A stretch of DNA of 64,000 nt, from the NCBI GenBank assembly GCA_025336685.1, contig GCA_025336685.1_4717.1; one strand, written 5' to 3'. The position numbers were made by a program, and so were the translations under genes. This stretch comes from Escherichia coli (GTDB taxonomy: Bacteria; Pseudomonadota; Gammaproteobacteria; Enterobacterales; Enterobacteriaceae). The notes below the pieces were generated by a model, which searched no databases, had not been told where the DNA came from, and worked only from the letters and a program-made list of their open reading frames with translations. Below, piece by piece: positions 14,441 through 52,046 of this stretch; within the stretch, counting starts at the first letter, position 1; each line of letters starts with the position of its first letter.

Positions 14441-14537
14441 TGATTACTCCAACACATAACGTGGGTTACTGTATATGTTAGCCCATATACCAACGTCGTC
14501 TCCCGACTCAATAATCACAGCGAAACGAAACGCAACA

Positions 14538-30277: not shown

Positions 30278-30335
30278 AGAACGACGTGTAGCGGTTTGTT
30301 TTAATTTCTAAGGGGTTTCCTTATCTAAGATTGAA

Positions 30336-30698: not shown

Positions 30699-30699
30699 A

Positions 30700-31125
30700 T
30701 CAAATCCCCTCTTTCAGAATCTCATTAAGGCTGTCAGTAATCCAGTCGAACTTCGTCTTAATCATGGCTGGGTTCAATCCGTATACTTCCCACACAAGCT
30801 GCGGTTTATGTGTTCCATCGTCCAAACAAAGCACATCGATTGAGAGCATCATACCGCCCGTCAATTTCATGTTCTCACAACTACGAAGATATGCGGATTC
30901 TAGCATTACTTTCCCTAACGCGGTGCAAGCAAACGTTAACCGGGAAGAATACAGGTACGATGAAGTTTTACAGTAGGTTGCTGATATCGGTTGAATATGT
31001 TTGCGGAGTTTGGCGTCTTCACGTAAGAGCAGTAACGTGCGATGTAAACGCGTATGCTCGGTAACCGATGGGCTATATTCACCGATACGCTCTTCGGCGA
31101 CTGATTCAGGCCATTTAATTTCCAT
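30700..31125 (-). CDS. Small protein, paralogue family A (2 of 3)
   Basis: LTFACTALGKVMLESAYL ... VWEVY; abuts its neighbours with 1-2 nt gaps. Confidence 0.5.
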   Translation of the reverse strand: MEIKWPESVAEERIGEYSPSVTEHTRLHRTLLLLREDAKLRKHIQPISATYCKTSSYLYSSRLTFACTALGKVMLESAYLRSCENMKLTGGMMLSIDVLCLDDGTHKPQLVWEVYGLNPAMIKTKFDWITDSLNEILKEGI

Positions 31126-31126
31126 G

Positions 31127-31543
31127 TTATCTTCCTCGATTTTCTAGTTGAGACACAATACCATCAGCAACGTAATGCAACTGGACATTAAAATCCAACG
31201 ACGATACTGCGGAAATTGACCAGCAGGCATTTGAAGCCCAATACAACCCACCTACACCCAAAGAGACTTCCCACGTTAACTTCGTTATGACGTCTCTAGC
31301 TCGCTGTTCACTATATCGAAACGCGTTTTCCAACAATGTTTTTCCCGTTTGTGAACATAAAAAGCAAAGTTTCACATCTGTGCCGGTCTTTTCAAAATCA
31401 AACAATCGAAAATGGTCAACCAAAGAGGGGGTGGAGGCTAGGCATTGCAATGCGTCTTCCAATGCAAGATGGTCTAGCGTTTCTAAGTTTTTGCATGGCT
31501 GCTTTGGTGCGAGTGCGATTGATTTGTGGAATACAACATTCAT
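31127..31543 (-). CDS. Small protein, paralogue family A (3 of 3)
   Basis: LCFLCSQTGKTLLENAFRY ... TWEVS. Confidence 0.5.
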   Translation of the reverse strand: MNVVFHKSIALAPKQPCKNLETLDHLALEDALQCLASTPSLVDHFRLFDFEKTGTDVKLCFLCSQTGKTLLENAFRYSEQRARDVITKLTWEVSLGVGGLYWASNACWSISAVSSLDFNVQLHYVADGIVSQLENRGR

Positions 31544-31591
31544 GATTAGTTCCTCGTAGTGTTAAGTGGGGACAGATGTGTCCCCGGATAG

Positions 31592-32062
31592 TTAGATTAC
31601 ATCCCAAGCCGTGTTAGGTATGGGTTGATTACGATCGATGTAATACATCACGCTTTCTTTAAGCTTGGTTAACGCGTCAGCAACGATGTTCTCCACGGTT
31701 ATCACCTTTTCCATGTTGCCCATTGTATCCTGCCATGTAAACCAATCATTGATGTTATCGATGTATAGGGACTCATCGTCATCCGTCATGACCTGTATAT
31801 TTTCACGGCGATCGCGGGTTGTATACAACGGTGTTTGTACATTCGTTCTAACACGCGTCCAAAGCTTCTCTAGAAAGTTCGACGGTTGATTATTCGTAGC
31901 GATAATAAGCTCACTACGTACTGAATGTTCTCCTCGCTTTTCAATAGCAAATAAACCATCGTAAGTGATGTTCATCAATTTACGGAGGTCATCGTTGCTG
32001 TTCCAGTCTTTTACAACAGCAGGAAGTCGGCTATTGTAACCTTCAGGCAATCTCTCAATCAT
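31592..32062 (-). CDS. Hypothetical protein (156 aa)
   Basis: ORF in the same co-directional block. Confidence 0.45.
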   Translation of the reverse strand: MIERLPEGYNSRLPAVVKDWNSNDDLRKLMNITYDGLFAIEKRGEHSVRSELIIATNNQPSNFLEKLWTRVRTNVQTPLYTTRDRRENIQVMTDDDESLYIDNINDWFTWQDTMGNMEKVITVENIVADALTKLKESVMYYIDRNQPIPNTAWDVI

Positions 32063-32492
32063 CGGTTTCTGCTCCTATATCACGTTTGAGGTCGGCCATC
32101 AGTTTTTCATAATGGTCTTTTATCACGTTCGCAATAACGAATTGCACTTTTCTCACTAGCTGCTCATCGGCATCACTGAATGTAAAAAGCTCACACACAT
32201 CAATCGGTTGTGATGCACCACCAATACGGTAGGTTTTAGTCGATGCGCGCTCAGCAATGACGGGGAGCGGTTCCACAGCGTTCAGTGCGGTACAGATTTC
32301 CGTAACGAGTTCTTGAATGCTGCTTCTGCCTTCGATAATAACAGAACAGCGATAGACATCCACCTCGTTAAGCCGTTCAACGACATCCGCCCTGATTTTG
32401 AAATTTCCAATAAGCGAGCTCACCAAAGTGCTATGCCAGTTGTTCACCACCCCGACCAACAGCGGATGATTCTCAAGATCTCTTCTATTCAT
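32055..32492 (-). CDS. Hypothetical protein (145 aa)
   Basis: ORF overlapping the downstream start by 8 nt (coupled). Confidence 0.45.
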   Translation of the reverse strand: MNRRDLENHPLLVGVVNNWHSTLVSSLIGNFKIRADVVERLNEVDVYRCSVIIEGRSSIQELVTEICTALNAVEPLPVIAERASTKTYRIGGASQPIDVCELFTFSDADEQLVRKVQFVIANVIKDHYEKLMADLKRDIGAETDD

Positions 32493-32571
32493 CAGTTAGC
32501 TCCTAAATAGCGCTACAACTAATTTTTAATGGAAGGGAATATGTTTCCCTTCCTTGGGTTAGTTTAATGCG

Positions 32572-32847
32572 TCATGCAGCTTTACAGCTCGCGTAACATA
32601 CCAGTGTTCCGTTGTTGATTGCCTCAACAACATCCTGGGTCAGTTTGGTCGCAAGTTTATTATCCGCACTCGGTACGTAATAACCTTCTCCTGTTTCAGT
32701 GACTAGGCGATAACGTACTAATCCTACCGCACGCTCGACGCGTAGCACCTTTTCAAGTTTGTGTTTGATGATCTTCGTCAGGCTGACGGCGTCTGATGCG
32801 TAGATTGCTTTATAAACCTTGTTCTTTGCTGTCGGTTTCATCAACAT
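32572..32847 (-). CDS. Small hypothetical protein (start moved to the internal ATG to avoid overlap with 32870..33703)
   Basis: The track ORF 32572..32910 would overlap the upstream gene by 40 nt; the internal start gives MLMKPTAKNK... Confidence 0.4.
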   Translation of the reverse strand: MLMKPTAKNKVYKAIYASDAVSLTKIIKHKLEKVLRVERAVGLVRYRLVTETGEGYYVPSADNKLATKLTQDVVEAINNGTLVCYASCKAA

Positions 32848-32869
32848 GGTTTCTGTTTTCCTTGGTTTA

Positions 32870-33703
32870 TCACGATGCCAGGTCAGCGATATCCCAATGG
32901 GTATAACCAACCTCGCGGATGAGCTCTGCTGTCTCTTCGAACAGTGGGGTAGGGCTAATAACCGGTAACCATTTCCCCTCTCGGGTTATCTTGACTTCGA
33001 CGGTCTGTAAGTTCGTGTTCCAACGAACATCATAAACCAGCGCATAGCCAAGAGGATGAACAAGTCCATCTTGGTTATATGTCTCCAAAAGACCTCGTAC
33101 GTCTTCTTCGTAGGATGTTTTCGACAAGACAGCACGTACTCGTCGCAGCCTCTTCGTGATAACCTTTCCCAGCTCGATGCTCTCCCAGCCTGTCATGACG
33201 CAAGGATTACCATCGCGACGAAGAGACCGAGAAATATAAATAGAATCGTTCGTGGTAAGGTGTACCCACCCAAGATCGCAGTATGCGACAGGTCGTGGTG
33301 ATTCTCCTTCGATAACCGTCGTTTCATCCAACATCGCCACAACACCGCAGTCTGCGAACTCCGGCGATACTTCATCCAGCATCTTAATACGGCTTTCTTG
33401 GCCGGTATGGTCAGGATCGACATGCGCGTAGTAGTAATTAGGCTCTATCGCACGGTATTGCGCAATGCTTCTACGGAAGTCGGTATCCTGCATTCCCAGC
33501 GGGTGGTGATACGCAAGCTGTTGCTTTATACCATCCTTGATTACCAACAGAAGATCTTCGCGATCTGATGCGGGATCCTCCACCACGATGTATTTAACAA
33601 TCGCTTTCAGGTTCTTAACGATGCTATCTGGAAGTTTCTCAATATCCCGCGCATCATAGACACGGTTAACTACAGTGTTTACAAGGTGTTTTGATAAGCT
33701 CAT
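32870..33703 (-). CDS. Paralogue family B protein (1 of 3), function unknown
   Basis: Shares an HPLG(F/Y)-containing C-terminal domain and a (Y/W)(H/Y)PLGMQD N-terminal motif with 33781..34638. Confidence 0.55.
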   Translation of the reverse strand: MSLSKHLVNTVVNRVYDARDIEKLPDSIVKNLKAIVKYIVVEDPASDREDLLLVIKDGIKQQLAYHHPLGMQDTDFRRSIAQYRAIEPNYYYAHVDPDHTGQESRIKMLDEVSPEFADCGVVAMLDETTVIEGESPRPVAYCDLGWVHLTTNDSIYISRSLRRDGNPCVMTGWESIELGKVITKRLRRVRAVLSKTSYEEDVRGLLETYNQDGLVHPLGYALVYDVRWNTNLQTVEVKITREGKWLPVISPTPLFEETAELIREVGYTHWDIADLAS

Positions 33704-33780
33704 CGATGATCTCTCTTTGTTATTTCTACCGATAACGCGGCATAAGGGGACAATGATGTCCCCGTGTTAGAATCAACTAC

Positions 33781-34638
33781 TTACGGCTTCAAATCCGAAA
33801 TATCCCATCGTACGTAACCTGTACGCTCAATTTCATGAACCAGTTCCTCGGTTTGTTTCTCAACACCGACAACGGGAACCCAATTCAACTGTTGGGTGCG
33901 TTTACCGATGTTAACCTCGACACGCTGCAGATCATCATTCCAACAAACCCCAGCCGGTTTCACAAAACCCAGCGGGTGGATAAAACTAAGATCGTCGCTG
34001 AAATCACGAAGAACGCGCAACGTATCGATGGTTGAAGGGTTATCACAGCGAACAAGGCGTACGCTTTGCAATTTATCGTATACCGCTCGAGCTACACGTT
34101 CATCGCGCCAGTTCGTCATGAATACCGGTTTTATACCACGTTTTAGAAGATGATCGATCTGGATTGCGATGTTATCGTGAACATACATGCAACCCTGTTC
34201 GGTTTCGGTGTTGCAGCCACCGTCCTCTAACCGGTTCGGATACGTCTGATGGTCTACCGTCACAGCAACTCCTTCAGCGAGCGTGGTCAACGGAAGAAGA
34301 CGTTGTAGACTCGTTATTGGATAATCAGGCGACATCCCAGGACGGATATGCGCCATCGTACCCCAACTGTCAGGGAATCCGTGTCGGTATGTGTATTGCC
34401 TGAATACCTCATCCTGCATCCCTAACGGATACCATCGTGCAAGCCGCTGTTGCTCGCCATCCTGAATAACAAAAAGCATTTCTTTGCGATTCGGCCATCG
34501 ATGATGTTCCACGGTCAAGCCATCAACAACCGGTCTTAAGTTGACTTTGATATGCTCGGGAAGTTTATCCACCTCTTCGCGACGGTAAAATCGATCGACG
34601 ACGATGATATCAACCTTCCCGTGATTGAACCAATTCAT
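33781..34638 (-). CDS. Paralogue family B protein (2 of 3), function unknown (start moved to ATG 34638, MNWFNHG)
   Basis: WYPLGMQDEVF and IHPLGFVKPAGVCWNDDLQRVEVNI align with the other two family members. Confidence 0.55.
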   Translation of the reverse strand: MNWFNHGKVDIIVVDRFYRREEVDKLPEHIKVNLRPVVDGLTVEHHRWPNRKEMLFVIQDGEQQRLARWYPLGMQDEVFRQYTYRHGFPDSWGTMAHIRPGMSPDYPITSLQRLLPLTTLAEGVAVTVDHQTYPNRLEDGGCNTETEQGCMYVHDNIAIQIDHLLKRGIKPVFMTNWRDERVARAVYDKLQSVRLVRCDNPSTIDTLRVLRDFSDDLSFIHPLGFVKPAGVCWNDDLQRVEVNIGKRTQQLNWVPVVGVEKQTEELVHEIERTGYVRWDISDLKP

Positions 34639-34926
34639 GTTAACTCCCTCTGTGGTGCGAAAACAAAACATCTAATTGCTCCCGTTGTTCTTTTAAGTAT
34701 GCGGGAAGCTGGTCTTCCCGTACCGTTCCGATTTCCAACGTGATATACCAGCGTTGTTCGGAAGCCTGCCATTGAAAACTGCTCTGTAACCGCAGGATGC
34801 TAGGATCGTGTACCTTGCTTGCACTGTAACGGTTGAACCAATTCAGGTATCCTGCTTTCCCTTCCTCATCAGCAACGTAACGCTGCACGCTGTTCTTCCC
34901 TTTGTTTTCGTATCCTGTTGCGTGTA

Positions 34927-35709
34927 TCATGCGAACGTTTCTCCTGTAACGTGTTGTGGGCGTTGTAGCATGGTAGCATCCCATTGTACGATCCGGCTCC
35001 GGCTTACCCGCATCATGACGGATTCATCGTCAAGCCCCGGTTGCGCAACCGGCAACCAACGTTCGTTAAGCACCTTCGCTTCAACCCGTTTCTTGCGTGG
35101 GTTGTAACGCACCTCGCTAACCCAAGCGAATCCAAGCGGATGCACAACCCGTGGATAATACGTGCGAAGCAATTGATGCATCCGATCCAGTACCTCCAAG
35201 CTCGCATCGGCCATGTATGGTTTCACCATGGTAAGCTTTTTGGTGTAATACGTCCCAACGGTATGGTTCGCCCACCCGGGAAGCACGTGATGGAATCCTA
35301 CCTGTAATTGTGTATTGCCGTTCACCTTCAGCCAACCGTATTGTCCAGCCGCACGTCCCTCGTCAGTATCGATCCATGTAAGTATATCGATGAACGCACG
35401 ATCGGTGATCTCGATGCGTTCCACCCGTTCATCCAACGCACCACGTACCACGAATCCGCTCGCGCTCACCCGCGCAGGATGCTGGCTGCGATGCGCGTAC
35501 CAATTCTTGTTGCCGGTAAGCAGGTAAGGGTACGTGTGAGCACCCCGCCAAACAACCGTTCCGTTCGTCCCATCAACACAGTGTACATACATCCCATCTT
35601 GACCGTTGTTGTAGCATGCTACCTTCACGCATTCGTTTTGAACATCGCTCGGTAACGCCAGGTATTCACCTTCGGTAAACATGGTATCAAAAATGATTTC
35701 TTCGTTCAT
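34927..35709 (-). CDS. Paralogue family B protein (3 of 3), divergent N-terminus
   Basis: C-terminal VHPLGFAWVSEVRYNPRKKRVEAKV aligns with VHPLGYALVYDVRWNTNLQTVEVKI of 32870..33703. Confidence 0.55.
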   Translation of the reverse strand: MNEEIIFDTMFTEGEYLALPSDVQNECVKVACYNNGQDGMYVHCVDGTNGTVVWRGAHTYPYLLTGNKNWYAHRSQHPARVSASGFVVRGALDERVERIEITDRAFIDILTWIDTDEGRAAGQYGWLKVNGNTQLQVGFHHVLPGWANHTVGTYYTKKLTMVKPYMADASLEVLDRMHQLLRTYYPRVVHPLGFAWVSEVRYNPRKKRVEAKVLNERWLPVAQPGLDDESVMMRVSRSRIVQWDATMLQRPQHVTGETFA

Positions 35710-35789
35710 CTAAAAAGATCCTCTGTTTTTCACGTTAATTAAACAACGTATTGATTTCTATTTAACGCAATACGAACATCGTACGTATG

Positions 35790-35810
35790 CATCATGAAGG
35801 TAATATAGTC
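35790..35810 (+). promoter_or_regulatory. Conserved 21-mer CATCATGAAGGTAATATAGTC (second copy)
   Basis: Exact 21/21 identity with 8034..8054; sits at the left edge of the AT-rich region, pointing into it. Confidence 0.4.
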
Positions 35811-36415
35811 GTGAAAGGATTTGCATTAAAGCAAGGGTAATTGTTTTGTTTTAAGAAGGGATGGATGATAGCGGTATCTGAAAGGAGAAGGATTTTAAGG
35901 AAGGTCTTGATTGAAGTAAGTGAAGAGGATGATTATTTCGGTTTAAGTAAGTAGGTAAGTTATCGTGTTATTGTTTTTTGTCTTAATGGTTTTATCGTTT
36001 TATCTGTTGTTTATATAAATCAAATTAAATTATAAAGTCAGTTAAGATGTTGGTTAACAACGTTCAACTCAAAAAACCATTTGTGATACTCTTCTTCACG
36101 TTGTTCATCAGAGTATCTCGTCTATACTCATTGCATTCGTATACGACATAACCGTTATACGCTAACGCTACGCTTATAGCTTGATAACTCTAAGGATAAA
36201 AACATAAACTCGCTTCGCTCGTTTAGTTTTTCTTTTTCTTAGAGTTATCCTGTTGCTCGTCTCTAAAGGACTTCGCTCCTCCCCCGTCCCCCGAAGGGGC
36301 CGAGGTCGTGGAAATTTTACTTTCCAAATACATTTACAACATCTGTAAACTTTTACTCCAGGTACTTAATCTTATCATTAGAAATTATAAAGAGAAGAAT
36401 AAACACAAACATAAA

Positions 36416-36447
36416 CCTTCCTCCAACCCAACAGGGAAGGAGGAAGG
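36416..36447 (-). terminator. Family hairpin CCTTCCTCCAACCC-AACA-GGGAAGGAGGAAGG after the stop of 36461..37354
   Basis: 14-nt arms with one mismatch; on the minus strand it is followed by a T-rich run. Confidence 0.55.
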
Positions 36448-36460
36448 GATACAATGGTTA

Positions 36461-37354
36461 TTATTCGGAAACGTTGTAACCGAACACCGCTTTACCGTAG
36501 GTGTGAGTACCGTCAGCTAATGACAGCACCAGCACGTGGTTGTACGTAGCGTTAACACCCTTGTCGGTAGACTCGGTGGTAGCACCGTTGTAGACGAAAG
36601 TAGCCGTTTGCAGATTGGCTTTCAGCTCGGTGATGATCTCATCACCCACACCCGTCTGCTCTTTGATCAGCGTGGTCAGGTTACCCGCCAGGCTTTCATC
36701 GATCTTGGTTTCATCACTGGTAATAGCTTGTAAACCTGCGGTGTAGGTGCTGAAGTCTAACGGATAGGTTAACAGACGCGCTGAGGTCTTGGTACCATCG
36801 CCTTCATCAACGTAGGTTAACTTACCCAGGTTGGTAACCTTGATGATGTTAGCCAGATCCAGCGTGGTGTTATAAACTTTAACTTCAACGGAACCGTACC
36901 AAGCCAGCGAATCTTCTTTGGCCTGCAGGGTGATCGTCTGGATACCATGATCGTCGAAGGTAACCGGCGTAGCTAACGTATCGGCTTTGATGTCTTTCGT
37001 TTTATCTAAGAACTTCTCACCGGAAGGCGTGATCATACCGTAGCGTTGAGCTACAAGGTCAACCACGTCACCAATAGTGGTGTTAGCATTAACGTTAACG
37101 CGTACGGCGATCTTCTGGAACCACTTAGCCAGATCCAGACGATGATAGGTAACATCGCGGTCATTGAAGTAAGGTGTACCTTCACCAGGGCTAAGCGTTA
37201 AAGTTGCATCTGGAGCAGAATCGCTTTTGGATTTAAGAACGTATTTAAGGTCGGTGGGTTTGAAGTTGGCACCAGTGTCGGCGTTGAGTGTGTTAATCTC
37301 ATCAACGATAAGTTGCCAAGGTGTTTTTAAAGTAAGTGATACTTGAGCTGTCAT
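36461..37354 (-). CDS. Putative virion structural protein, paralogue family C (YxDR ... AW(T/Y)GSV motifs)
   Basis: Shares motifs with 37498..38040, 48415..49320, 50237..51088 and 51099..52046; codon usage biased towards preferred codons. Confidence 0.55.
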   Translation of the reverse strand: MTAQVSLTLKTPWQLIVDEINTLNADTGANFKPTDLKYVLKSKSDSAPDATLTLSPGEGTPYFNDRDVTYHRLDLAKWFQKIAVRVNVNANTTIGDVVDLVAQRYGMITPSGEKFLDKTKDIKADTLATPVTFDDHGIQTITLQAKEDSLAWYGSVEVKVYNTTLDLANIIKVTNLGKLTYVDEGDGTKTSARLLTYPLDFSTYTAGLQAITSDETKIDESLAGNLTTLIKEQTGVGDEIITELKANLQTATFVYNGATTESTDKGVNATYNHVLVLSLADGTHTYGKAVFGYNVSE

Positions 37355-37497
37355 TTTCTACCTCTATGGTTGTTACATCACTCTCAAAAGATGTAAGTGT
37401 TTACAGAAATCAATATATTTTATATTAAATGTGAATATTATGGAGAACGACTCCGACTCTCCTTTTCGACCATCAAAAAATCAGAGGATACATAATC

Positions 37498-38040
37498 ATG
37501 GCCTTAGACTTTAACAAAGCAGCGAAATCCCTTCTGCTTGATCTGATCAACACCAAAGCAACCCGCGCACTGTCCGAAGAAGAACTGCAGTTCGGTACTC
37601 CGGCGGCATCTTCCGAAAATGCTAAGAACACCGTTATCCAGCTGAATGCTGCGGCTGAAGCAGAAAACCTGCAGGGTACTCAGCAGTTCTACTACGATCG
37701 TCTGGCTCTGTCTGACGTTTTCGCTGATGTAACCAGCGATGTTACTTTCGAACTGCCGCACGGTACTGACAGCATTAAGGCTTCTGAGCTGGTAAGCAAG
37801 CTGGTCACCAAGTTCGGTCTGGCTTCCCTGACCGGTGAAATCAATGAAGAAACCTTCCAGCTGTCCGCAGGTACTGTTGGTCAGGTAACCCTGACTGCGA
37901 TCGAGGGTGGTATGGTATATACCGGTACTCTGCAGGTTGCCCTGACCTACGCAGCAGCACCGAAAGACAATCTGGCAACCGTTCTGGCGGATAACGTAGC
38001 TGATGGCTTCGTGAAACCTGAAGTTGCTGTCGTTGGCTAA
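37498..38040 (+). CDS. Small putative major virion/decoration protein, paralogue family C, with strongly biased codon usage
   Basis: FYYDRLALSDVF and GMVYTGTLQVAL motifs; heavy use of CTG, GGT, ACC, GCT, GAA codons; SD AGAGGA upstream; apparently monocistronic. Confidence 0.6.
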   Translation: MALDFNKAAKSLLLDLINTKATRALSEEELQFGTPAASSENAKNTVIQLNAAAEAENLQGTQQFYYDRLALSDVFADVTSDVTFELPHGTDSIKASELVSKLVTKFGLASLTGEINEETFQLSAGTVGQVTLTAIEGGMVYTGTLQVALTYAAAPKDNLATVLADNVADGFVKPEVAVVG

Positions 38041-38239
38041 TAAACACATAGAGCAATAGTATGGGTTTTGTACAGCTCGGCTATTGCTCTTCTACAATTT
38101 GGTTGTAACAATCTGCGTGGTTGCACGCTTATCTTTCTCATTGAACGCTTCGTATGAAGCGTGGTGTTGAAAGGGTTGTGGATCTCCTCAAGCGGCCAGG
38201 GACCCAGACCAACCTGAATAAACACAAACACATGTTAAG

Positions 38240-38272
38240 CCCCTCCTCAGCCCTTATCGGGTTGGGGAGGGG
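38240..38272. terminator. Family hairpin CCCCTCCTCAGCCC-loop-GGGTTGGGGAGGGG (imperfect) at a convergent junction
   Basis: Between 37498..38040 (+) and 38336..38971 (-); two mismatches in the 14-nt arms. Confidence 0.45.
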
Positions 38273-38335
38273 TCTTATACGTCTTTATACGTTTCGTTCG
38301 TTCTGGTGTGTTTTAGAACGGTTTACAGCAGGGTT

Positions 38336-38971
38336 TTATTCAACACTGAAACCGTTCAAACAGATGGCTTCGTAACGTTTACGTTCACGGCGTTTGCGTG
38401 CCTGCCAACCGTAAATGAACTTCTCGTCTTTCTCACGACGTTCCGCTAATTCGATGTAATAGGTGCTCTGCATGTCCAGCATTGCATCGATGAGATAATC
38501 CTTACCGGTTGCGCCACGCTTAGCGATGTAGGCATCAAGAGCCGCCAGTGTTTTGGGACCCATTGCGCCATCAGCGTCGATATTTTTCCAGTAAGTTTGG
38601 CGGTTGTTCATGACGTTCAGATAACGCTGAAGGTTCTTAACCGGTACGGTTTTGCCTGCGTTGATACCCAGGTCAAAGAGACGATCAGCCAAGAACACGG
38701 AACGTTTCATGACCTCATCAAGCTTCATCTTATCCCAGAAGTGGGTCTTGTAGATGAAGAACGCCATTTCCGTGGTAAGGTTACGCATATTACCGTCCCA
38801 CCCGAATTTCGTTTTCAGCGTGGTTTTGTACTGATCCGCAAGCGCTTTCGTAATGCCGTGGTTCGTGATCCCACCAGAGTCATCGGGATCGTCGACGTAA
38901 CCTGCTTCGATGCTAGTTTTATCACGAATGATAAATTCGCAAGTAAAATCTTTTTCAGTAATCTTGGCCAT
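38336..38971 (-). CDS. Endolysin: GH108-family lysozyme with C-terminal peptidoglycan-binding (PG_binding_3-like) domain
   Basis: N-terminal IEAGYVDDPDDSGGITNHGIT matches the GH108 E...GGY.DDP.D.GG.T..GIT signature; C-terminal half resembles PG_binding_3. Confidence 0.7.
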   Translation of the reverse strand: MAKITEKDFTCEFIIRDKTSIEAGYVDDPDDSGGITNHGITKALADQYKTTLKTKFGWDGNMRNLTTEMAFFIYKTHFWDKMKLDEVMKRSVFLADRLFDLGINAGKTVPVKNLQRYLNVMNNRQTYWKNIDADGAMGPKTLAALDAYIAKRGATGKDYLIDAMLDMQSTYYIELAERREKDEKFIYGWQARKRRERKRYEAICLNGFSVE

Positions 38972-39097
38972 TAGAACTCCTCGTTGGAATAACGTTTTAG
39001 AGGAATAGGGAAGCCCTAGAACGCGATAAACGATTTAATCCAGGCAAACACCAGACTAAACTTTTCTAAGCGTTAGAACGCGTTCTAGAGCGCAATA

Positions 39098-41146
39098 TCA
39101 AATACCTTTGGTTCCCTTCACGTGATGTGCAATTTCTTCAACCATTGCACGCAACGCACGAAGCTGCTGGTCGTGTTCGTACCAACCGCCCAACAGAACC
39201 CCGCTATACACCATGGTGTCAAGACTTAACAGTCCTTTATCTGATACGTTGATCATTTCCGGGAACTGTTCTTGAACACGCTGTGCGATGACACCGATCT
39301 TCTCTACATCAGGATCGTAGTTGTGACGGAAACGGGCAAGCCCGCTGCGCGCCATTTCACGTAAACGTTCGCTAAGAGATTCTGGATGGTCTTTCAGGTA
39401 ACGGATGTCATGTTTACTACGCTCATCTGAACGGATGTAAGCGTTAGGAACATCGATGTTACTGTTGAAGTACAGTGCGCTACCACCACCTGCAGAGTTA
39501 CCCCAATAGAAGCGTGTGATCTCCCCACCGCCATTTTCCGTGATGATAACATGTTTACCTAAACGCGTGCCACCATTGCCGTCAACGAAGACCAGTTTGT
39601 TTCCGCTGTAAGAACCCCAGAACAAACGTGTGTCGATGATGTGCGTTGCAGCGAGACGAGCGTTACGCGGTGTAGAATACACGGTGTTAACATCTTGCTG
39701 CGCTTGCGCATCGGAAGCGATACCGTAGTTCTGTACGTTCCCTAAACCTACCTGCGCTTTCGTAACAGCATGTGGGTTATCTCGACGGTTAGCGTGAGCG
39801 TTAACCAGATCGCCCGCCAGTTTTTGAATAGCCCAGTTGGTAGACTGTGGTGTCATGTAACGGTTCGTTGCAGAACCACCTTGCGCCTCAGCTTGGTTAG
39901 CGGTTGGGTAGTTCTCAACGCTTCCTAACCCCACTTGTGCTTTAGACACTTGGTGTGGGTTGTTCTTGTCAGCGATGTGTGCATTAAGCGGAACTAACGC
40001 AAAGGTCTCAATGGACGCTTTGGTTGTGTTCGGTGCCATTAATCGGTTAGCTGCAACACCGGCACGCGCTTCATCCTCAGACGCCATTGGGTAGTCTTGT
40101 ACATTCCCTAACCCAACCTGCGCTTTGGTTACCCTGTGTGGGTTGTTGTAATCGGCTTTATGTGCGTTAAGCGGAATCAATGCGAACTGTTCAATCGCTG
40201 CAACGGTACGCAACGGCGTCATGAAACGGTTGTTCGCGGTTCCGCCCTTCGCCTCGCTATCCGAAGCGGTAGGGAAGTTATCAACGTTCCCAAGGTTAAC
40301 CTGCGCTTTGGTGACGCTATGCGGGTTATCTTTACGGTTAGCGTGAGCATCGACTAGGTCACCAGCCAGTTTAGCGATTGCCCATCCAACCGTTTGTGCG
40401 GTCATGTACCGATCAGGTGCGGTACCGGCTTCTGACTCCGCCTTGTTTGCGGTAGGGTAGTTCTGTACGTTACCTAGTCCAACTTGGGCTTTGGTGGTTT
40501 CGTGTGGGTTATCGGTACGGTTAGCATGCGCGTAATGCAGATCGGTAAGATTTTTATCCGCTGCTTGCATGTCTTTGCGTAACTGATCGATTGCTGCCCA
40601 GAGACGGTTATCGGACGCAGCGTCGCCGATAAGTATCGCGGCTTTCAGTGAATAGATCGCTAAGCAAAGATGTTCGGTACCGTAGATAGCACTAACGTGG
40701 TGGATGTGTGGTTCAGGCGGATAAAGTTCCGGTTTGTTCTTGATGTCGTCCCAGTTGATCGGACGATCGTCAAGTTTGAGTTCTTCGATAGCCTGATATA
40801 ACGCGTCAATAAGACTTACGTAAACACCACCGATGATACGATAGTCGTTAACTAACGTACCCTCGATGTCATCGTTGATGATGGCGATAGCCGCACAGAT
40901 TTCTTTACCGGCGTAAAGCGTAGCGTCCTGATACAAGAAGATGGGTTTGTAGTCCACGCCTCGCACCAGTGTCTTACCGGTAAGCTTTTCAGTGATGACC
41001 AGACTTTCGGTGAAGAACGGTCCGCCGTCGAGGGCGTAACATTTATTCTCGGTTCGTGGAACGGTGTGCTCTTCACCAACGATGTGGTTGCTATCGAGCG
41101 TGCCGGTCCAGTCCTCGGGGTACTTCAGGGTAATTGGTGTTGACAT
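39098..41146 (-). CDS. Tail fibre protein with 5 NPHxVTKAQVGLGNVxN repeats and a C-terminal S74-type intramolecular chaperone domain
   Basis: Five roughly 57-aa repeats (H-A-N-R-x-D-N-P-H-x-V-T-K-A-Q-V-G-L-G-N-V); C-terminal SDERSK at about nt 39411-39428 matches the SDxRxK autoproteolysis motif. Confidence 0.8.
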   Translation of the reverse strand: MSTPITLKYPEDWTGTLDSNHIVGEEHTVPRTENKCYALDGGPFFTESLVITEKLTGKTLVRGVDYKPIFLYQDATLYAGKEICAAIAIINDDIEGTLVNDYRIIGGVYVSLIDALYQAIEELKLDDRPINWDDIKNKPELYPPEPHIHHVSAIYGTEHLCLAIYSLKAAILIGDAASDNRLWAAIDQLRKDMQAADKNLTDLHYAHANRTDNPHETTKAQVGLGNVQNYPTANKAESEAGTAPDRYMTAQTVGWAIAKLAGDLVDAHANRKDNPHSVTKAQVNLGNVDNFPTASDSEAKGGTANNRFMTPLRTVAAIEQFALIPLNAHKADYNNPHRVTKAQVGLGNVQDYPMASEDEARAGVAANRLMAPNTTKASIETFALVPLNAHIADKNNPHQVSKAQVGLGSVENYPTANQAEAQGGSATNRYMTPQSTNWAIQKLAGDLVNAHANRRDNPHAVTKAQVGLGNVQNYGIASDAQAQQDVNTVYSTPRNARLAATHIIDTRLFWGSYSGNKLVFVDGNGGTRLGKHVIITENGGGEITRFYWGNSAGGGSALYFNSNIDVPNAYIRSDERSKHDIRYLKDHPESLSERLREMARSGLARFRHNYDPDVEKIGVIAQRVQEQFPEMINVSDKGLLSLDTMVYSGVLLGGWYEHDQQLRALRAMVEEIAHHVKGTKGI
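39646..40534 (-). repeat. Tandem in-frame coding repeats (5 units of about 170 bp) within the tail fibre gene
   Basis: Repeated protein motif NPHxVTKAQVGLGNVQNY(P/G)xA and recurring DNA words such as CAGGTTGGGTTAGGGAACGT variants. Confidence 0.6.
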
Positions 41147-41159
41147 AACCTGGAGGTCC

Positions 41160-43754
41160 TTATAACGTGACTGTACCTAATTTGGTTGTCTTATTGAGAT
41201 TGATGACAGAGATCTGGGTATCGCTGGTCGTAATCGTTCCGATGTTAACGCGCTGCCCTTTATCATCTTCTTGCTTGTGGATGGTTAACTCCAATTCTAA
41301 CTGGTTACCGTTAGGAACAACGGAAACGTACCACGTTTTATTACCTGGCGAACTATTATAGTCTTTTAGGTTATAATGGCCTTTAGGTAAAGTCATGGCC
41401 TTACCAGCAAACAAGCAAGCGATGTCTTCGTTGATGTAGATATCGTAACCGGAAGCAGCAACGACCGTAGAAACCATGTAGACATGTTTGACGGTACCTG
41501 CGAGGTATTCGGCTACGCTTGGCCCATATGCTCTGAATACCTGTCCGCCATTGGATAAACGGTACGCTTCCCCAAGGTCGACGTACCCCAGACCCCATAC
41601 CGGATGGACGTTGTAACGACGTCCGCTGCTGGCCAAATACTCATAAAGGTCATCTACCGATAACCCAACCCACGCACCACTGGCGTTCTTAGCACCACGG
41701 AATTGAAAATCGTTTGCGTTTCCTGGAGTAGCAACGCGCACGGACATCGCCCCGGCGATTAACCAACCATCAGCGCATTTACGATACCCTAATGGTCCCC
41801 ACGCCCCCAGAGTGTTGTCAATGTTATTGATTTGGTCCCGAAGCGTGTAAGTTACCGTTGTGATGACCCCCGTTACGGTAATGTTCCCTTCCCGAGCGCT
41901 GGTCGTCACTTCAGACGTCATGATAGCCGCCTTCCTGGAGACAGGATCGTACACCGATATGAACATCAAGCAGGGGGCCCCTGTGGACGCTGGAGGAACC
42001 ACGATAGAGCCGCGTATAACGGAGTATCTCTCAAGCTTCGGCGACGTGTAGGTATCCCAACAAAGTTTGGCCGCTCTGTCGAGTTCTGCCTGCGTGATGC
42101 TTATCGATGCCCCCTTTAAGGCTAACGTATCAGGGTCGACCTCAACCCTGCTGCTTAATCTCCCTTCCTGTAGCCAGCTGCCAGTCACTATCGTCTGGTC
42201 GTCGCTCATGTGAATTGTCGCGAAACGTTCGCTCACTGAACCGCCTACGTGGACGCGACTGGTTGGCGGGAATCCCATCACATCGACCACGCTGTTCTTA
42301 TAGCGATAACTCAAATCCCAATCAGCGGTTATTAACCGCTTTTCGAAATTGCTCTGACCCCCTGGGATGCGGGATAAGACATAGACCTTGTTCTTCGCCG
42401 TGAAGCCAACGAAGCCGTGTGGACCACAGGACCCAACAACGCGGTCCTTGATGTTAATCCAGTTCCCCGCCTCGTACGCGGATATTGGGGTGAGTTTTGC
42501 AAGTTCGTCGAAGACATTACCAGCGTAGTCACCAATGCGATACGATCGAACCATCGGCGAGGCCAGGTTATCATTCACACAGCTGGTAACCAGACCGTCC
42601 TCGCGAATGACCATGTTCCCGGTAAGGTTGGCCCCACCCCATACCCAGAATCCGTCTTTATAATCACGGTCACGAGTTGACATCGTACAAGGGCCACGAA
42701 AGGACACCGAACCATCGGAGTTCACTTGTAATGACGGTGTTCCAGCATTGGGACTTAATGTCCATTGCTTCGTATCCAGGTTCAAATCGACGTACCAGAT
42801 CGTTGTCCCCTGATCGGCGATATTCACGGTACTGTTAGTGTACCATGCCGTCGTGCAGTAGATTCGCGCAATGTTACCTTTTACAACAGCGTAATTTCTA
42901 ACACCCGCACGAATAGGGACAAGCGTCGTTAATTGACTAGGGTACGCTGTATGGTTTAACACTTCCCAGAAAAGAATATGGTCGAGGTTGGTTTTCGTCG
43001 TTCCCTCAAAAATCTTTCCACTAAACCCGGTTTCTTTGGTGAACTGTACGGCCGCACCATTTTTAATGTCCGATAACATACAGGTATGTACATCGAGCCC
43101 GTTTTTCCCTTCATACGCCCACCAGACTAACAGGTACACTTTGTTTTTGTAGACGAACGTACTACAGCGCGCCATGCTGTCGGTAATACCCTCTACCGAC
43201 CCGGTACACATGGCGGCGACATGCTTCTCTACGTTGAATGTGCCGTTAGTCAGAACGATGTAGGGCTGTGTGTTCTCGTCGTTTGCGTCCATCGCGACAC
43301 CCATCATCACGCCGTGGTTATGACACCAGACTGATTGTGGGATTTTAGGTAGTGCTGTAGGGTTGTACTGGCGACTGGTACCTATGGCGGTATCGAGCAG
43401 CCCTTCACCATTGTTTTTACAGATAGCGTAATACACCCCGTTTTTCATGCTGTTGGATGCAGAGCGAAGGATGGAAACACTCCCGTCTGCTTCCTGACAG
43501 ATTCCGTAGGTACGACGTTCGGTCATGGCTATCGCGCCATCAGCTGACCCTTCGATGGCGAGAGGGAAGTAACTTTGATCGCCAATTTGTTCGATATCGG
43601 TTACGTCAATATCAATGTACTTTTCCATCTCGGTGTTGAACTCTGCGGTGCTGTACGCGCCGAGATCGCCAGCCTTTAACCCTGTTGGATTGCTTCGACT
43701 AGCGATACGTTCGGTAACGCTGGTCACCAGTTCGCTAAATTTTTTCATTGCCAT
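41160..43754 (-). CDS. Large tail-associated protein (864 aa), possible tail spike or baseplate component
   Basis: Location between the tail fibre genes; no catalytic motif recognised. Confidence 0.5.
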   Translation of the reverse strand: MAMKKFSELVTSVTERIASRSNPTGLKAGDLGAYSTAEFNTEMEKYIDIDVTDIEQIGDQSYFPLAIEGSADGAIAMTERRTYGICQEADGSVSILRSASNSMKNGVYYAICKNNGEGLLDTAIGTSRQYNPTALPKIPQSVWCHNHGVMMGVAMDANDENTQPYIVLTNGTFNVEKHVAAMCTGSVEGITDSMARCSTFVYKNKVYLLVWWAYEGKNGLDVHTCMLSDIKNGAAVQFTKETGFSGKIFEGTTKTNLDHILFWEVLNHTAYPSQLTTLVPIRAGVRNYAVVKGNIARIYCTTAWYTNSTVNIADQGTTIWYVDLNLDTKQWTLSPNAGTPSLQVNSDGSVSFRGPCTMSTRDRDYKDGFWVWGGANLTGNMVIREDGLVTSCVNDNLASPMVRSYRIGDYAGNVFDELAKLTPISAYEAGNWINIKDRVVGSCGPHGFVGFTAKNKVYVLSRIPGGQSNFEKRLITADWDLSYRYKNSVVDVMGFPPTSRVHVGGSVSERFATIHMSDDQTIVTGSWLQEGRLSSRVEVDPDTLALKGASISITQAELDRAAKLCWDTYTSPKLERYSVIRGSIVVPPASTGAPCLMFISVYDPVSRKAAIMTSEVTTSAREGNITVTGVITTVTYTLRDQINNIDNTLGAWGPLGYRKCADGWLIAGAMSVRVATPGNANDFQFRGAKNASGAWVGLSVDDLYEYLASSGRRYNVHPVWGLGYVDLGEAYRLSNGGQVFRAYGPSVAEYLAGTVKHVYMVSTVVAASGYDIYINEDIACLFAGKAMTLPKGHYNLKDYNSSPGNKTWYVSVVPNGNQLELELTIHKQEDDKGQRVNIGTITTSDTQISVINLNKTTKLGTVTL

Positions 43755-43766
43755 TATTCACCTCAG

Positions 43767-44252
43767 TTAAATCGGCGAATCAGGTAATTGGCCATCGACA
43801 ATCTCGATAGTGGCCACTTTACATGTCGCAGCGAGATGTGCTGTGCCCTGAACTTTGTTCCAGGTACCGATACGCATCACGTTTTTATAGCTGCTGTTAC
43901 TGTCGCTCAATGTGTAAACAAAACCGTTATCCGTGACAGCAAGATAGATCCAACCGGTTGATGCGCTAACACCAGAAACATCCAACGTGGTCGCGGGAAC
44001 CGTTCCTGTTATCGTGTTGTATTCCGCTTCACCTTGGCCGATGCTGATCCTCCCGTTGTTGTAGCTGGCTGCTGGAATTATTTTATTTCGGCTGAAGAAA
44101 AGGAACGGAAGATAACGTTGTGTAACAAGAGGCGTAAGTTTAGGAGCCACTTCTGTCTTAGCGTACACGTTTGTCTGCGTCGTTGTTACTGAATGAGGAT
44201 TCTTCTTGGCCAGGTAGGCTCCCCATTCAGAAAGCAATGTCGATAACTTCAT
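43767..44252 (-). CDS. Short fibre-like protein with one degenerate fibre repeat (KKNPHSVTTTQ)
   Basis: N-terminal degenerate copy of the NPHxVT repeat; lies within the tail fibre cluster. Confidence 0.5.
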   Translation of the reverse strand: MKLSTLLSEWGAYLAKKNPHSVTTTQTNVYAKTEVAPKLTPLVTQRYLPFLFFSRNKIIPAASYNNGRISIGQGEAEYNTITGTVPATTLDVSGVSASTGWIYLAVTDNGFVYTLSDSNSSYKNVMRIGTWNKVQGTAHLAATCKVATIEIVDGQLPDSPI

Positions 44253-44256
44253 ACGG

Positions 44257-44772: not shown

Positions 44773-44779
44773 GTCCTAT

Positions 44780-44819
44780 CGAAAAAATAAAAAGATGGAA
44801 AGGTGGGCAGAACCCACCC
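44780..44819 (-). terminator. Rho-independent terminator candidate (minus strand) after the tail fibre gene
   Basis: GGTGGG-CAGAA-CCCACC stem-loop followed on the minus strand by TTTTTATTTTTT. Confidence 0.5.
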
Positions 44820-44824
44820 ATCCG

Positions 44825-48414: not shown

Positions 48415-49320
48415 TTATGCCACGTATAACGTTAGATAACCGTCGATGAGCGTATTCATAACACTGAGTTGAAGTACAACAGCTTTACGAGCGTCTGTAC
48501 GTACACCAAATGGTAGTGTTTTGAAATGCTCTGGATCGGCTATTACTCTCGCATTCTGCAAGTTGAGCGGTCCAGGCGTTGCCGACAATACCCAGCGATC
48601 GTTGGCCGTAAGACCATCGATCTCTTCAGAGAGACCCAATTGCAGCATGTTCATTTCTGCAATTAGCGCCTCTGATTGCATATCACCTGAGGTTAACGTA
48701 TACCCATCAGTAAGTGACGCTAGAACATCATCAGACATGAACCAGTTGTACGAAACAATAGCGCCCGGGAGTTTATCACTATCTCGATCGATGAGATAAT
48801 TCAACCCAGCCAACATATTGTTGCGAATGAGGTTGTTGAGGTCGTTATGTCCTGAAGTTAACTCAACAAGTAATTGACCAACCCATACTTGGTTACCAGG
48901 TTTAGGTGTTATCGCAACATGTATCGGTGATTTGGATTTATCCAGATCCGCGTCGACAATCTCGGTTTTATTGAGAAGGATACCGTACGTTGATGCTAAG
49001 ACAGGTAATATCTCAGAGACCTTGGTTAGTGTATCTAAGGTTTCGATCTCGATGGGCCAGCGGTGCTGTCCGCCAGGCCAAATACCCAGTTTACCAAGAT
49101 CGACGCGGTTATAATAGATGTCGACAGAGTTCACCAGCCCTGAACCCGGTTGGGGATGCACGGTTAACTTGCTGTTACGCTTGTACCCTGTGCTTTCAGA
49201 AGCCTCACCGATAACCAGTTTATCCAGCGTTACGCCTCGAGCGTCGAAATCGCTATGCTTTCGAATCAGCCGAAAGAGGATTTCTTTCGATTCTAACCCT
49301 AGGATTTCACTGTACTCCAT
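48415..49320 (-). CDS. Putative structural protein, paralogue family C
   Basis: IYYNRVDLGKLGIW and QVWVGQLLVEL motifs align with the other family members. Confidence 0.5.
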   Translation of the reverse strand: MEYSEILGLESKEILFRLIRKHSDFDARGVTLDKLVIGEASESTGYKRNSKLTVHPQPGSGLVNSVDIYYNRVDLGKLGIWPGGQHRWPIEIETLDTLTKVSEILPVLASTYGILLNKTEIVDADLDKSKSPIHVAITPKPGNQVWVGQLLVELTSGHNDLNNLIRNNMLAGLNYLIDRDSDKLPGAIVSYNWFMSDDVLASLTDGYTLTSGDMQSEALIAEMNMLQLGLSEEIDGLTANDRWVLSATPGPLNLQNARVIADPEHFKTLPFGVRTDARKAVVLQLSVMNTLIDGYLTLYVA

Positions 49321-49545: not shown

Positions 49546-49614
49546 CCCAATTTCAGAAATAACCGCGCAGTACTCTTCAATTACCCGGAGAGTTTAGCCA
49601 CATTGAGATATTCG

Positions 49615-50236: not shown

Positions 50237-51088
50237 TCAGTTATATTGCATCAACAGGATACCGCCGTAGTTCGTGCAGTAATCTTGGCTAAGCGTAACG
50301 ATAACAGCGTTAGCGAACGCAGGGTTAACAGGATAACCCTGTGCGATAAGTTCTGTTGTTTTACCGGTTGCGAGTACGGTAGCCCCGTAAAGGTTGTTTT
50401 CGTCTTCACGACCGTTATAAACCCATGGGGTTGGCGCAACGTTGTTGAATAAGCTAACCATTGCGCTTAGGTTACCACCAACCTTTAACCCGGCAAGATC
50501 GGAACGGATTGCTGTGCAGTCTATAGCGTAACTGTAGACCAACGCTTGGATACGATTTGCGGTGTAGTACGGGAAATTGAGACCGGCCATCACCGTGGTC
50601 TTCATCATCCCCGCAATATCGCGCGCGCTATCGAGGAGGTAGAATGTAACACTTCCCGTCCAAGCCAATCCGGTTGTTTTCAATTCTACGACATGAGGGA
50701 ATGGGTATTCATTCCCTCGAACAATCGGAGAATCGACGCAGCTATCCCGATCGATAACGATTCCGTACGTCGATTGGATCAGAGGGATAAGATCGTGCGT
50801 TGTTTTAACCCCGGCGTCGATAGCAAGCTTCGGTTCCATTCCCAAGAAGAAGTCTTGGATAGGGATACGATCGTACCACACGTAGCTGCTTTCACGGTAT
50901 TGTGCTGGCGTTACTGTTGCCGAAGGCGATACCTTAGCGCGGGTGTTCCGTTTATACGCATGGTTTCCGTTTTCAGCAGCATCCGTGATCTCAAGCGCAT
51001 CGAAGTTAAAGTCGAAGTCAGGATTGGCAGCCTGAATAAGTTCGGCGACCAGTACTTTAGGACTTTTGTTTAACAATTTCTGACTCAT
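50237..51088 (-). CDS. Putative structural protein, paralogue family C
   Basis: VWYDRIPIQDFF, LAWTGSV and DYCTNYGG motifs; closest to 51099..52046. Confidence 0.55.
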   Translation of the reverse strand: MSQKLLNKSPKVLVAELIQAANPDFDFNFDALEITDAAENGNHAYKRNTRAKVSPSATVTPAQYRESSYVWYDRIPIQDFFLGMEPKLAIDAGVKTTHDLIPLIQSTYGIVIDRDSCVDSPIVRGNEYPFPHVVELKTTGLAWTGSVTFYLLDSARDIAGMMKTTVMAGLNFPYYTANRIQALVYSYAIDCTAIRSDLAGLKVGGNLSAMVSLFNNVAPTPWVYNGREDENNLYGATVLATGKTTELIAQGYPVNPAFANAVIVTLSQDYCTNYGGILLMQYN

Positions 51089-51098: not shown

Positions 51099-52046
51099 TT
51101 AGCCTTGTTCTTCTGGAGAACGACCCTGGAGGCTTGCGGTATGTCCGTCGACGTTGTAATAGAAAATCAATGGACCGCCGACAGCAGTACAGTAGTTTTC
51201 ATCCAGACTGATCTCGATACCGTATTGGTAACCTGCTCGTGCTGGAATACGTCCGCCTAACTCGCCGTTGAAAGCCACTTTAGCGTTATACAGGTTATAC
51301 GGTGCGATGTTGTCGTCTAATACCCAACGATCGGCGGTCATTTCAGCCAGAAGATCGGCGACCACCACATCGCTAATGACCGTACCTGTTACCAGCGAAG
51401 CCAGCAACTCACCGTAATCGGAAGTATCACGACTGTAGCTGTAGATTTCACCGCTAGCGCGTACGCCTTGTCCGAAGAACTTAAGACCATCAAGCTCTTT
51501 GATTGCGATAATATCATCAAGATTCGGTACACGCGATTTCATCAAGATACGAACACTTCCCGTCCAAGCCAGGCAATCAGATACGACACGGAGCAATTGT
51601 CCGTTAACGGTATCCCAGTTAAGTTCGTCGTTGACAATTTCTTCTGCGGTAAGGCCGAGACCGAAACGTTCTTTGATGATAGGCCAGATATCACGCATCT
51701 TGGTGGCATCTGGTGCATCGATAAGAATAGGTGCTACGTTACGTAGATACGCACCGATGTTAATACGATCGTAATACAGCGTCGTCGAACCTTCGTAATC
51801 GTCTAACTCGGTAAGCTTAGCGGTTGCCGTTGCCGTAATCTGGGTATCGCGCTCGTAGGCGCTTTGGTTGGTGGTTGGTGTCCCTAAAACCAATAATTCA
51901 GGGGTTAGAACATGTTCTCCGTTCTGAGGTGGGTTATCGTGGTTGATAAGACCATACACGAGATCGGATGAGGGTAAAGAGACGTCGACCGGGTAAAGTT
52001 CGGTGTCGTCAATAGTTGTTACCGTATCACTCACGGTGACCTCCAC
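51099..52046 (-). CDS. Putative structural protein, paralogue family C
   Basis: LYYDRINIGAY, LAWTGSV and NYCTAVGG motifs. Confidence 0.55.
   Translation of the reverse strand: MEVTVSDTVTTIDDTELYPVDVSLPSSDLVYGLINHDNPPQNGEHVLTPELLVLGTPTTNQSAYERDTQITATATAKLTELDDYEGSTTLYYDRINIGAYLRNVAPILIDAPDATKMRDIWPIIKERFGLGLTAEEIVNDELNWDTVNGQLLRVVSDCLAWTGSVRILMKSRVPNLDDIIAIKELDGLKFFGQGVRASGEIYSYSRDTSDYGELLASLVTGTVISDVVVADLLAEMTADRWVLDDNIAPYNLYNAKVAFNGELGGRIPARAGYQYGIEISLDENYCTAVGGPLIFYYNVDGHTASLQGRSPEEQG

Follow-up and report, generated by a model that had tools for sequence, protein, structure and literature searches.

What do two back-to-back genes encode if their codons are adapted to the host, in one of them as closely as those of ribosomal proteins, and why should they be so adapted? 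The question is raised by a 64,000-nucleotide stretch of DNA (hereafter the window) deposited as Escherichia coli (assembly GCA_025336685.1, contig GCA_025336685.1_4717.1), in which a preliminary description, made from the letters alone, picked out a divergent pair of very highly expressed 'family C' paralogues and suggested that they serve as a major capsid decoration or tail tube/sheath-associated protein. We find that the pair are orthologues of gp22 and gp23 of the jumbo phage Goslar, which are paralogous proteins of the family DUF7941. The host-like codon usage is real but is already explained by the known abundance of these orthologues, and the proposed capsid or tail location is not borne out.

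Both open reading frames (ORFs) exist with exactly the coordinates, strands and lengths first described. The 297-amino-acid gene (36461..37354, minus strand) encodes a full-length DUF7941 protein, orthologous to Goslar gp22 (gp022; YP_009820707; 90.6% amino acid identity, equal length). The 180-amino-acid gene (37498..38040, plus strand) encodes a short DUF7941 protein with the N-terminal domain and linker/tail only, orthologous to Goslar gp23 (gp023; YP_009820708; 88.9% identity, equal length). Both Goslar genes are annotated 'virion structural protein'. The exact window proteins do not occur in the protein collection, where the best matches reach 93% and 97%. Searches with all Goslar proteins (tblastn) revealed that the whole window derives from a Goslar relative, co-linear across the ends of Goslar's circularly permuted record, with 54 orthologues at 77-100% amino acid identity; the megablast match for the locus is Escherichia phage vB_EcoM_Goslar, at 92.6% nucleotide identity. 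Goslar, a nucleus-forming jumbo phage with a genome of 237 kb that infects E. coli, belongs to the Chimalliviridae, and its record is circularly permuted (PMC6563267). As had been noted from the sequence, the 180-amino-acid gene is the sole plus-strand gene inside a minus-strand block (29840-46978, with 18 minus-strand genes), a position that it also holds in Goslar and in every related locus, and the pair lies among endolysin and fibre genes.

The paralogy of the two proteins is real but distant. Both pass the gathering score (27 bits) of Pfam DUF7941 (PF25613), the 297-amino-acid protein with 175.4 bits (E=2.2e-51, profile positions 4-275 of 276) and the 180-amino-acid protein with 73.9 bits (E=2e-20, positions 4-173 of 276), and both match PHROGs 1037 and 2935. 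Profile-profile alignment of their families (hhalign) gives 95% probability (E=3.4e-8, 138 columns). Profile methods are needed here because a BLASTP comparison of the two proteins alone is insignificant (E=0.21) and fails to show the relationship. Matches to DUF7941 in tblastn searches are confined to phiKZ-like jumbo phages (of Pseudomonas, Erwinia, Salmonella, Serratia, Xanthomonas and others); by sequence, the family is thus restricted to chimalliviruses, the phiKZ-like, nucleus-forming jumbo phages.

Structure models point to the same family. The AF2 models are of moderate confidence, with a mean predicted local distance difference test score (pLDDT) of 74 for the 180-amino-acid protein and 73 for the 297-amino-acid protein, and in Foldseek searches of the PDB the sole match with E<=0.001 for both is 9xqd_0, the N-terminal domain of phiKZ gp127 (E=1.3e-6, probability 1.00 and template modelling scores of 0.61/0.72 for the shorter protein; E=7.9e-6 for the longer). 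By sequence, 9xqd_0 is also the only significant PDB match of the 297-amino-acid protein (phmmer, E=2e-6). The models thus place both proteins in the N-terminal-domain fold of phiKZ gp127, the only solved DUF7941 member. In the 297-amino-acid protein, a conserved linker (residues ~167-197) joins an N-terminal to a C-terminal domain. Residues 167-197 fall below a pLDDT of 50; many of them are invariant in gp22, yet the segment is disordered in the monomer model, the pattern expected of a segment that would fold only on a partner.

We quantified codon adaptation with the codon adaptation index (CAI), using weights from 26 ribosomal protein genes plus tufA and fusA of E. coli MG1655 (4,593 codons). 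An interim 10-gene reference gave 0.657 and 0.437; all final values come from the 28-gene reference. The 180-amino-acid gene has a CAI of 0.733 (rank 1 of 60 window genes, z=5.6) with 1.7% rare codons, and the 297-amino-acid gene has 0.547 (rank 3 of 60, z=2.9), relative to a mean of 0.352 +/- 0.068 for the remaining 58. On the same scale the E. coli reference genes span 0.56-0.83, whereas other E. coli genes lie lower (cryptic gsp genes, mean 0.32; mscL, 0.38; secY, 0.45). When synonymous codons were redrawn from window-average usage, none of 2000 draws reached the observed CAI of either gene (z=14.4 for the 180-amino-acid gene and 7.5 for the 297-amino-acid gene). Measured against host ribosomal protein genes, the 180-amino-acid gene therefore falls inside their range and is as strongly adapted, while the 297-amino-acid gene is clearly above the phage average.

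The wording of the preliminary description, that both genes use almost exclusively preferred codons, holds for the 180-amino-acid gene, in which CTG makes up 86% of leucine and GGT 83% of glycine codons, threonine is encoded only by ACC or ACT and glutamine only by CAG. It is overstated for the 297-amino-acid gene (CTG 48%, TTA 29%, CAA 56%). The contrast with neighbouring genes is likewise seen on the left side only, as the endolysin (0.56) and a fibre-like gene (0.48) on the right also have elevated CAI. A 181-amino-acid antisense ORF (37504..38049, minus strand) that covers the whole 180-amino-acid gene was rejected as a gene and attributed to this bias: its frame is codon-aligned with the 180-amino-acid gene and stays open because that gene avoids TTA, CTA and TCA, and the single TTA of the gene (codon 3) is the stop of the antisense ORF.

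The same bias marks the abundant proteins of Goslar. Across all 247 Goslar coding sequences the mean CAI is 0.366 +/- 0.090, and the highest values belong to the major capsid protein (MCP, 0.796), gp58 (0.783), gp214 (0.716), gp23 (0.712) and chimallin (0.690). By CAI gp23 ranks 4th and gp22 9th of 247 (0.555), the latter barely above the tail sheath (0.545) and tube (0.531). For 47 proteins, CAI correlates with the published virion copy fraction from label-free mass spectrometry (Spearman 0.73, p=5e-9). The trend is visible within DUF7941 itself (gp23, CAI 0.71 and 2144 copies; gp22, 0.56 and 577; gp33, 0.39 and 112; gp31, 0.29 and 8), and gp31, gp92, gp93 and gp86, present at 5-8 copies, have CAI values of 0.28-0.35. 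The published table gives ~27 copies per virion for gp34. The window contains no tRNA gene, and Goslar is not reported to have any (PMC6563267), so it is plausible that translation depends on host tRNAs. With such reliance, selection for translation efficiency would have optimised the codons of the highest-copy proteins.

Published proteomics bears out both the very high expression and the virion association of the pair. In CsCl-purified Goslar virions, label-free mass spectrometry gives ~2,140 copies of gp23 (2,144 in Table S4; peptide coverage 90%) and ~580 copies of gp22 (577 in Table S4) (10.64898/2026.04.21.720040), which brings DUF7941 subunits to ~2,700 per particle. The label-free quantification (LFQ) copy fraction of gp23, 0.129, equals that of gp58 and is twice the 0.062 of MCP (10.64898/2026.04.21.720040). 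The same preprint, of April 2026, identifies gp22 and gp23 as DUF7941 paralogues, reports that purified gp22 alone assembles into filaments and bundles hundreds of nm long, describes family members fused to carbohydrate-binding, hydrolase and leucine-rich repeat (LRR) domains, predicts head-to-tail oligomers and proposes that a 'DUF7941 fibre cloud' anchored to the peripheral baseplate serves to recognise the host (10.64898/2026.04.21.720040). It contains no codon analysis (the word 'codon' occurs 0 times). Since the pair, the family, the abundance and a mechanism proposal are all published for ~90%-identical orthologues, we regard the pair as already known.

Around the two genes we recovered the elements of a self-contained divergent transcription unit with its own Shine-Dalgarno (SD) sequences and terminators. 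The 143-bp divergent intergenic region (37355..37497) is 96% identical to that of Goslar, is partly conserved in a distant relative, and contains both SD sequences and the presumed phage promoters. The strong SD sequences of the preliminary description are present upstream of both genes (GAGGT at 37360-37364, 5 nt before the minus-strand ATG of the 297-amino-acid gene; AGAGGA at 37483-37488, 9 nt before the plus-strand ATG of the 180-amino-acid gene). Its flanking terminators were also recovered, by folding. Downstream of the 297-amino-acid gene, an intrinsic-terminator-like hairpin with a U-rich tail (36395..36447, stem 36416-36447, minus strand) has a minimum free energy (MFE) of -27.4 kcal/mol (z=-5.97); it is identical in Goslar and the stem is retained, with changes, in L010, a more distant Goslar-like locus whose gp23 is only 47% identical. 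Downstream of the 180-amino-acid gene, a terminator-like hairpin (38050..38090, plus strand) has an MFE of -22 kcal/mol (z=-3.97) that none of 200 shuffles equalled, and a weak U-tract. Both hairpins had escaped a simple terminator scan, whose limits on loops and T-runs excluded them.

The 'dedicated promoter region' of the preliminary description does not resemble a sigma-70 promoter. A scan of 35700-38400 found no sigma-70-like promoter in the intergenic region, and the total count in the scan equals that of shuffles. This lack is expected, as phages of the phiKZ type transcribe with their own RNA polymerases; the late promoters of the phiKZ non-virion RNA polymerase (nvRNAP) have the motif TATG, with G as position +1, and need downstream sequence for function (PMC4666361). 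A TATG at 37439-37442 on the plus strand, with a putative start at G37442, is followed by a conserved block that opens with a small 5' hairpin (GGAGAACGACUCC), and this block is the best-conserved intergenic part in L010. We therefore propose 37439..37475 (plus strand) as a candidate late promoter and start of the 5' untranslated region (UTR) of the 180-amino-acid gene, which would give that gene a 56-nt 5' UTR opening with the hairpin.

Taken together, we consider it probable, though well short of certain, that the pair are abundant DUF7941 proteins that form baseplate-anchored filaments and are expressed late with host-adapted codons. Late in infection, the phage nvRNAP would start at a TATG-type promoter, for the 180-amino-acid gene probably at G37442, and translation would rely on host tRNAs. 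The gp22 and gp23 proteins are predicted to polymerise head to tail into long flexible filaments anchored on the peripheral baseplate, with gp23 as the major and gp22 as the minor subunit. Indirect hints of such polymerisation are the conserved ends of gp23 and the conserved linker of gp22, segments that model at low confidence or as disordered in the monomer. Rarer DUF7941 paralogues would bear the sugar-binding, hydrolase or LRR domains, and the filaments may widen the capture radius for host recognition. A baseplate location would fit phiKZ, whose outer peripheral baseplate includes gp127 at the end of the gp139 band (PMC13250141).

Several points weigh against this account. Density for gp22 and gp23 is absent from all Goslar maps, from those of the capsid, neck, tail and inner baseplate to the poorly resolved peripheral baseplate, and the attachment site and filament length are extrapolations of the preprint (10.64898/2026.04.21.720040). 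Mass spectrometry on CsCl-purified particles is unable to distinguish attached filaments from free ones that co-purify. In phiKZ, gp127 is modelled once per star lobe (6 per virion), far below thousands (PMC13250141). The promoter of the 180-amino-acid gene is a candidate drawn from a 4-nt motif and its conservation; TATG is too short for significance, with ~1 expected per 143 bp on two strands and 3 found. The intergenic region holds no convincing promoter for the 297-amino-acid gene, and a minus-strand TATG at 37491-37494 was rejected as a gp22 promoter, Goslar having CACA there. In SPN3US, the short DUF7941 gene is part of a structural operon whose genes share one direction, and it shows no codon optimisation (CAI 0.36); strong expression of the short form therefore does not extend to the whole family.

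These points leave room for other readings. Very abundant late proteins might self-assemble as free intracellular filaments, with or without a role there, and merely co-purify with virions. We think this unlikely but give it real weight, because purified gp22 alone forms filaments, virion density has been assigned to neither protein, and LFQ finds the non-virion proteins PhuZ and chimallin at >100 'copies' in the same preparation, so that co-purification does occur. Against it, the signal of gp23 exceeds that of chimallin ~17-fold, gp127 of phiKZ, a homologue, forms part of the baseplate, and paralogues carry receptor-binding-type domains. The baseplate position of gp127 also bears on the improbable case of internal head (inner body) or ejected proteins, comparable to the PF12699 proteins, which would be present at high copy without ordered density. 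In its favour, gp23 has the same copy fraction (0.129) as gp58, which dominates among the PF12699 proteins, and both are missing from symmetric maps. Yet neither window protein has a PF12699 or other head-protein match, the fusions to carbohydrate-binding, hydrolase and LRR domains are typical of external fibres, the neighbourhood is one of endolysin and fibre genes, and 90% peptide coverage of gp23 argues against the removal of a large propeptide.

The capsid decoration or tail tube/sheath role first suggested for the pair is largely refuted by cryo-electron microscopy, and we consider it very improbable. Lattice proteins of a capsid or tail would be expected at about this copy number, and PHROGs 1037 and 2935 carry the category 'head and packaging'. 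In the 3.4-4.2 Å capsid, neck and tail maps of Goslar, however, other proteins account for all of the density (MCP gp41, decorator gp77, latch gp146, tube gp217, sheath gp218), with gp77, gp146 and a vertex complex as the capsid decoration (10.64898/2026.04.21.720040). The tube and sheath genes lie away from gp22/gp23 in Goslar. Searches of both window proteins found no similarity to decoration proteins (Pfam, PHROG, PDB) and no homology to sheath or tube proteins (profile, sequence, fold). Finally, the codon usage might stem from a recent transfer out of an enterobacterial genome, or from a mutation bias particular to one strand, and not from selection for expression, given that the 180-amino-acid gene has a GC content of ~0.51, near that of E. 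coli and above other window genes (0.42-0.53), and is locally alone on its strand. We reject this explanation. A CAI of 0.73 is far above that of ordinary E. coli genes such as gsp, mscL and secY; DUF7941 is specific to chimalliviruses; the minus-strand partner and the high-copy minus-strand genes for MCP and gp58 share the bias; the bias persists in lineages with 40-50% protein identity; and the synonymous substitution rate (dS) of gp23 is below the window median while its nonsynonymous rate (dN) is high.

Comparison with relatives extends this evolutionary picture. Public Goslar-like assemblies were found through protein look-ups, IMG/VR scans having given only 3 related contigs. The endolysin gene followed by back-to-back gp23-like and gp22-like genes is found in 10/10 loci examined. 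The codon bias is kept in nine further Goslar-like loci (CAI 0.63-0.74 for gp23-like and 0.44-0.70 for gp22-like genes), even where gp23 is only 40-49% and gp22 52% identical. Goslar itself shares the divergent arrangement next to the endolysin, the terminator, the intergenic sequence and the CAI pattern, and differs by ~10% amino acid divergence of the pair, whose evolution is some of the most rapid seen in the window. In the comparison with Goslar, gp23 has a dN/dS of 0.35, the highest of 43 orthologue pairs (median 0.06), at a below-median dS; the protein evolves fast while its synonymous sites are constrained.

The gp23 proteins of the different loci form two classes, ~88-100% and ~47-49% identical to the window protein. 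Both classes share a conserved N-terminus of ~45 residues and a conserved C-terminal tail (LATVLADNVADGF.KP). Class membership is decoupled from gp22 identity (gp22 94% and gp23 48% in locus L016; gp22 84% and gp23 88% in L020), and the divergence of gp23 is confined to its middle and 3' part, with conserved flanks on either side. These sequence patterns indicate exchange of gp23 alleles by recombination. More speculatively, gp23 could be the bulk subunit of micron-scale DUF7941 filaments, with two interchangeable alleles (~47% identical in the middle, but alike in their polymerisation termini and promoter/5' UTR) swapped independently of gp22 and an exposed centre under diversifying selection for recognition of host surfaces or defences, and the same mesh, spreading from the baseplates, might pack tails and exclude ribosomes in the intracellular virion 'bouquets' of Goslar; as a whole we hold this idea to be rather doubtful.

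Among more distant systems, phiKZ gp127 (PDB 9xqd chain 0) and gp126 belong to the same Pfam family as the window pair and share its N-terminal-domain fold, and phiKZ gp139 is the homologue of Goslar gp32, whose gene stands ~12 kb from the pair in the window. The phiKZ proteins differ in being only 14-19% identical to the pair, and in the one modelled copy of gp127 per star lobe as against the hundreds to thousands estimated for gp22/gp23. SPN3US-type and Erwinia jumbo phages encode ~175-amino-acid DUF7941-like proteins (PHROG 2935) that match the N-terminal part, are annotated as virion structural proteins and are 27-32% identical to the window proteins. A stand-alone, highly expressed unit appears to be specific to the Goslar-like clade. 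The proposed assembly would resemble that of head-to-tail polymers formed by strand or peptide donation, such as chaperone-usher pilus subunits, in which a flexible segment completes or docks on the globular domain of a neighbour to build long thin fibres from a small subunit. This is an analogy and not homology: the fold search brings up FimA only at E ~2, and there is no chaperone or usher.

The window encodes three further DUF7941 paralogues, all on the minus strand. They are a 301-amino-acid gp31-like protein (48415..49320; PF25613, 181 bits), whose gene is not codon-optimised, a 283-amino-acid gp33-like protein (50237..51088; 161.6 bits) and a 311-amino-acid gp34-like protein (51099..52034; 133.7 bits on the ATG-limited ORF). 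The gp34-like gene matches Goslar gp034 at 99% over its full length without an in-frame stop, and probably uses a non-ATG start. Between the first two lies a homologue of Goslar gp32 (DUF7208, a baseplate spoke protein; 49336-50220, minus strand) that is split into ORFs of 201 and 69 amino acids by four indels (-1, -2, +1, +2), which shift ~45 nt out of frame and create two stops. Either the sequencing or the assembly is at fault here, or an essential gene has really been disrupted. The counterparts of Goslar gp190 (RNase H-like; ~14447-15968, minus strand) and gp203 (~3584-5721, plus strand) are spread over 2-3 frames, implying frameshifts, and together with the gp32 split this suggests indel errors in the source sequence.

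Directly 3' of the gp22 terminator, a 751-bp stretch (gap 35710-36460) has no ORF of at least 40 amino acids. Within it, a ~285-nt block (~36071-36356, minus strand) is 95-100% identical in 15/15 distinct Goslar-like sequences, whereas the flanking genes have only 69-93% DNA identity. The block is single-copy, always lies just downstream of the gp22-like terminator, and is absent from the most distant relative examined. It folds at -89 kcal/mol (z=-6.2), more strongly than the opposite strand, and its features include a UUCG-capped GC hairpin and a terminator-like 3' end (hairpin plus U-tract). Two compensatory pairs and four one-sided, G-U-compatible changes fit the minus strand only; most helices are invariant, and covariation is thin. 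No Rfam match was found in the window or the gap, at the gathering score or at E<=1. We regard the block as a candidate new structured non-coding RNA (ncRNA) or, alternatively, a DNA element.

Other parts of the window also yielded observations. Exact matches to the motif CTATATTACC, set within CACG(A/G)CTATATTACCT, occur at 8044-8053, 21164-21173 and 35799-35808, all on the minus strand, upstream of three minus-strand genes; the motif is conserved in relatives and early-promoter-like. With at most 1 mismatch, 7 matches were found against 3.1 expected. The element presumably resembles the phiKZ early promoter consensus. Three tandem paralogues (277, 296 and 260 amino acids; 32870-35709, minus strand) share HPLG(F/Y/M) motifs, and none of them matches a Pfam family. 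At this position Goslar carries the 260-amino-acid member (gp021) alone, while L010 has more copies, so that these genes form a copy-number-variable family. An 864-amino-acid protein at the gp026 position of Goslar (41160-43754, minus strand) and the genes at the gp017/gp018 position (~31127-32492, minus strand) have no Goslar match above 60% identity, while neighbouring genes are 81-98% identical. Both look like replaced cassettes, possibly linked to host range. Many Goslar-like contigs of ~216-249 kb (L010, L012, L016 and L018-L029) come from metagenomes and from assemblies labelled E. coli, Shigella or Salmonella. Their occurrence agrees with a published report of lytic phage genomes inside bacterial assemblies (PMC12768965).

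The pair represents no new kind of system, as gp22, gp23 and DUF7941 were described in April 2026. It is a clean positive control, in that codon adaptation read from raw sequence picked out what proteomics had found to be the joint most abundant virion protein. Our additions are modest: a codon-adaptation analysis in which CAI tracks copy number, a conserved expression unit and two gp23 allele classes, with the ~285-nt candidate ncRNA just downstream as a further new observation. The stand-alone unit, with its TATG candidate, 56-nt 5' UTR, optimised ORF and terminator, offers a compact handle for knock-down, recoding and tagging, and could be used as a cassette for strong late expression when chimalliviruses are engineered.

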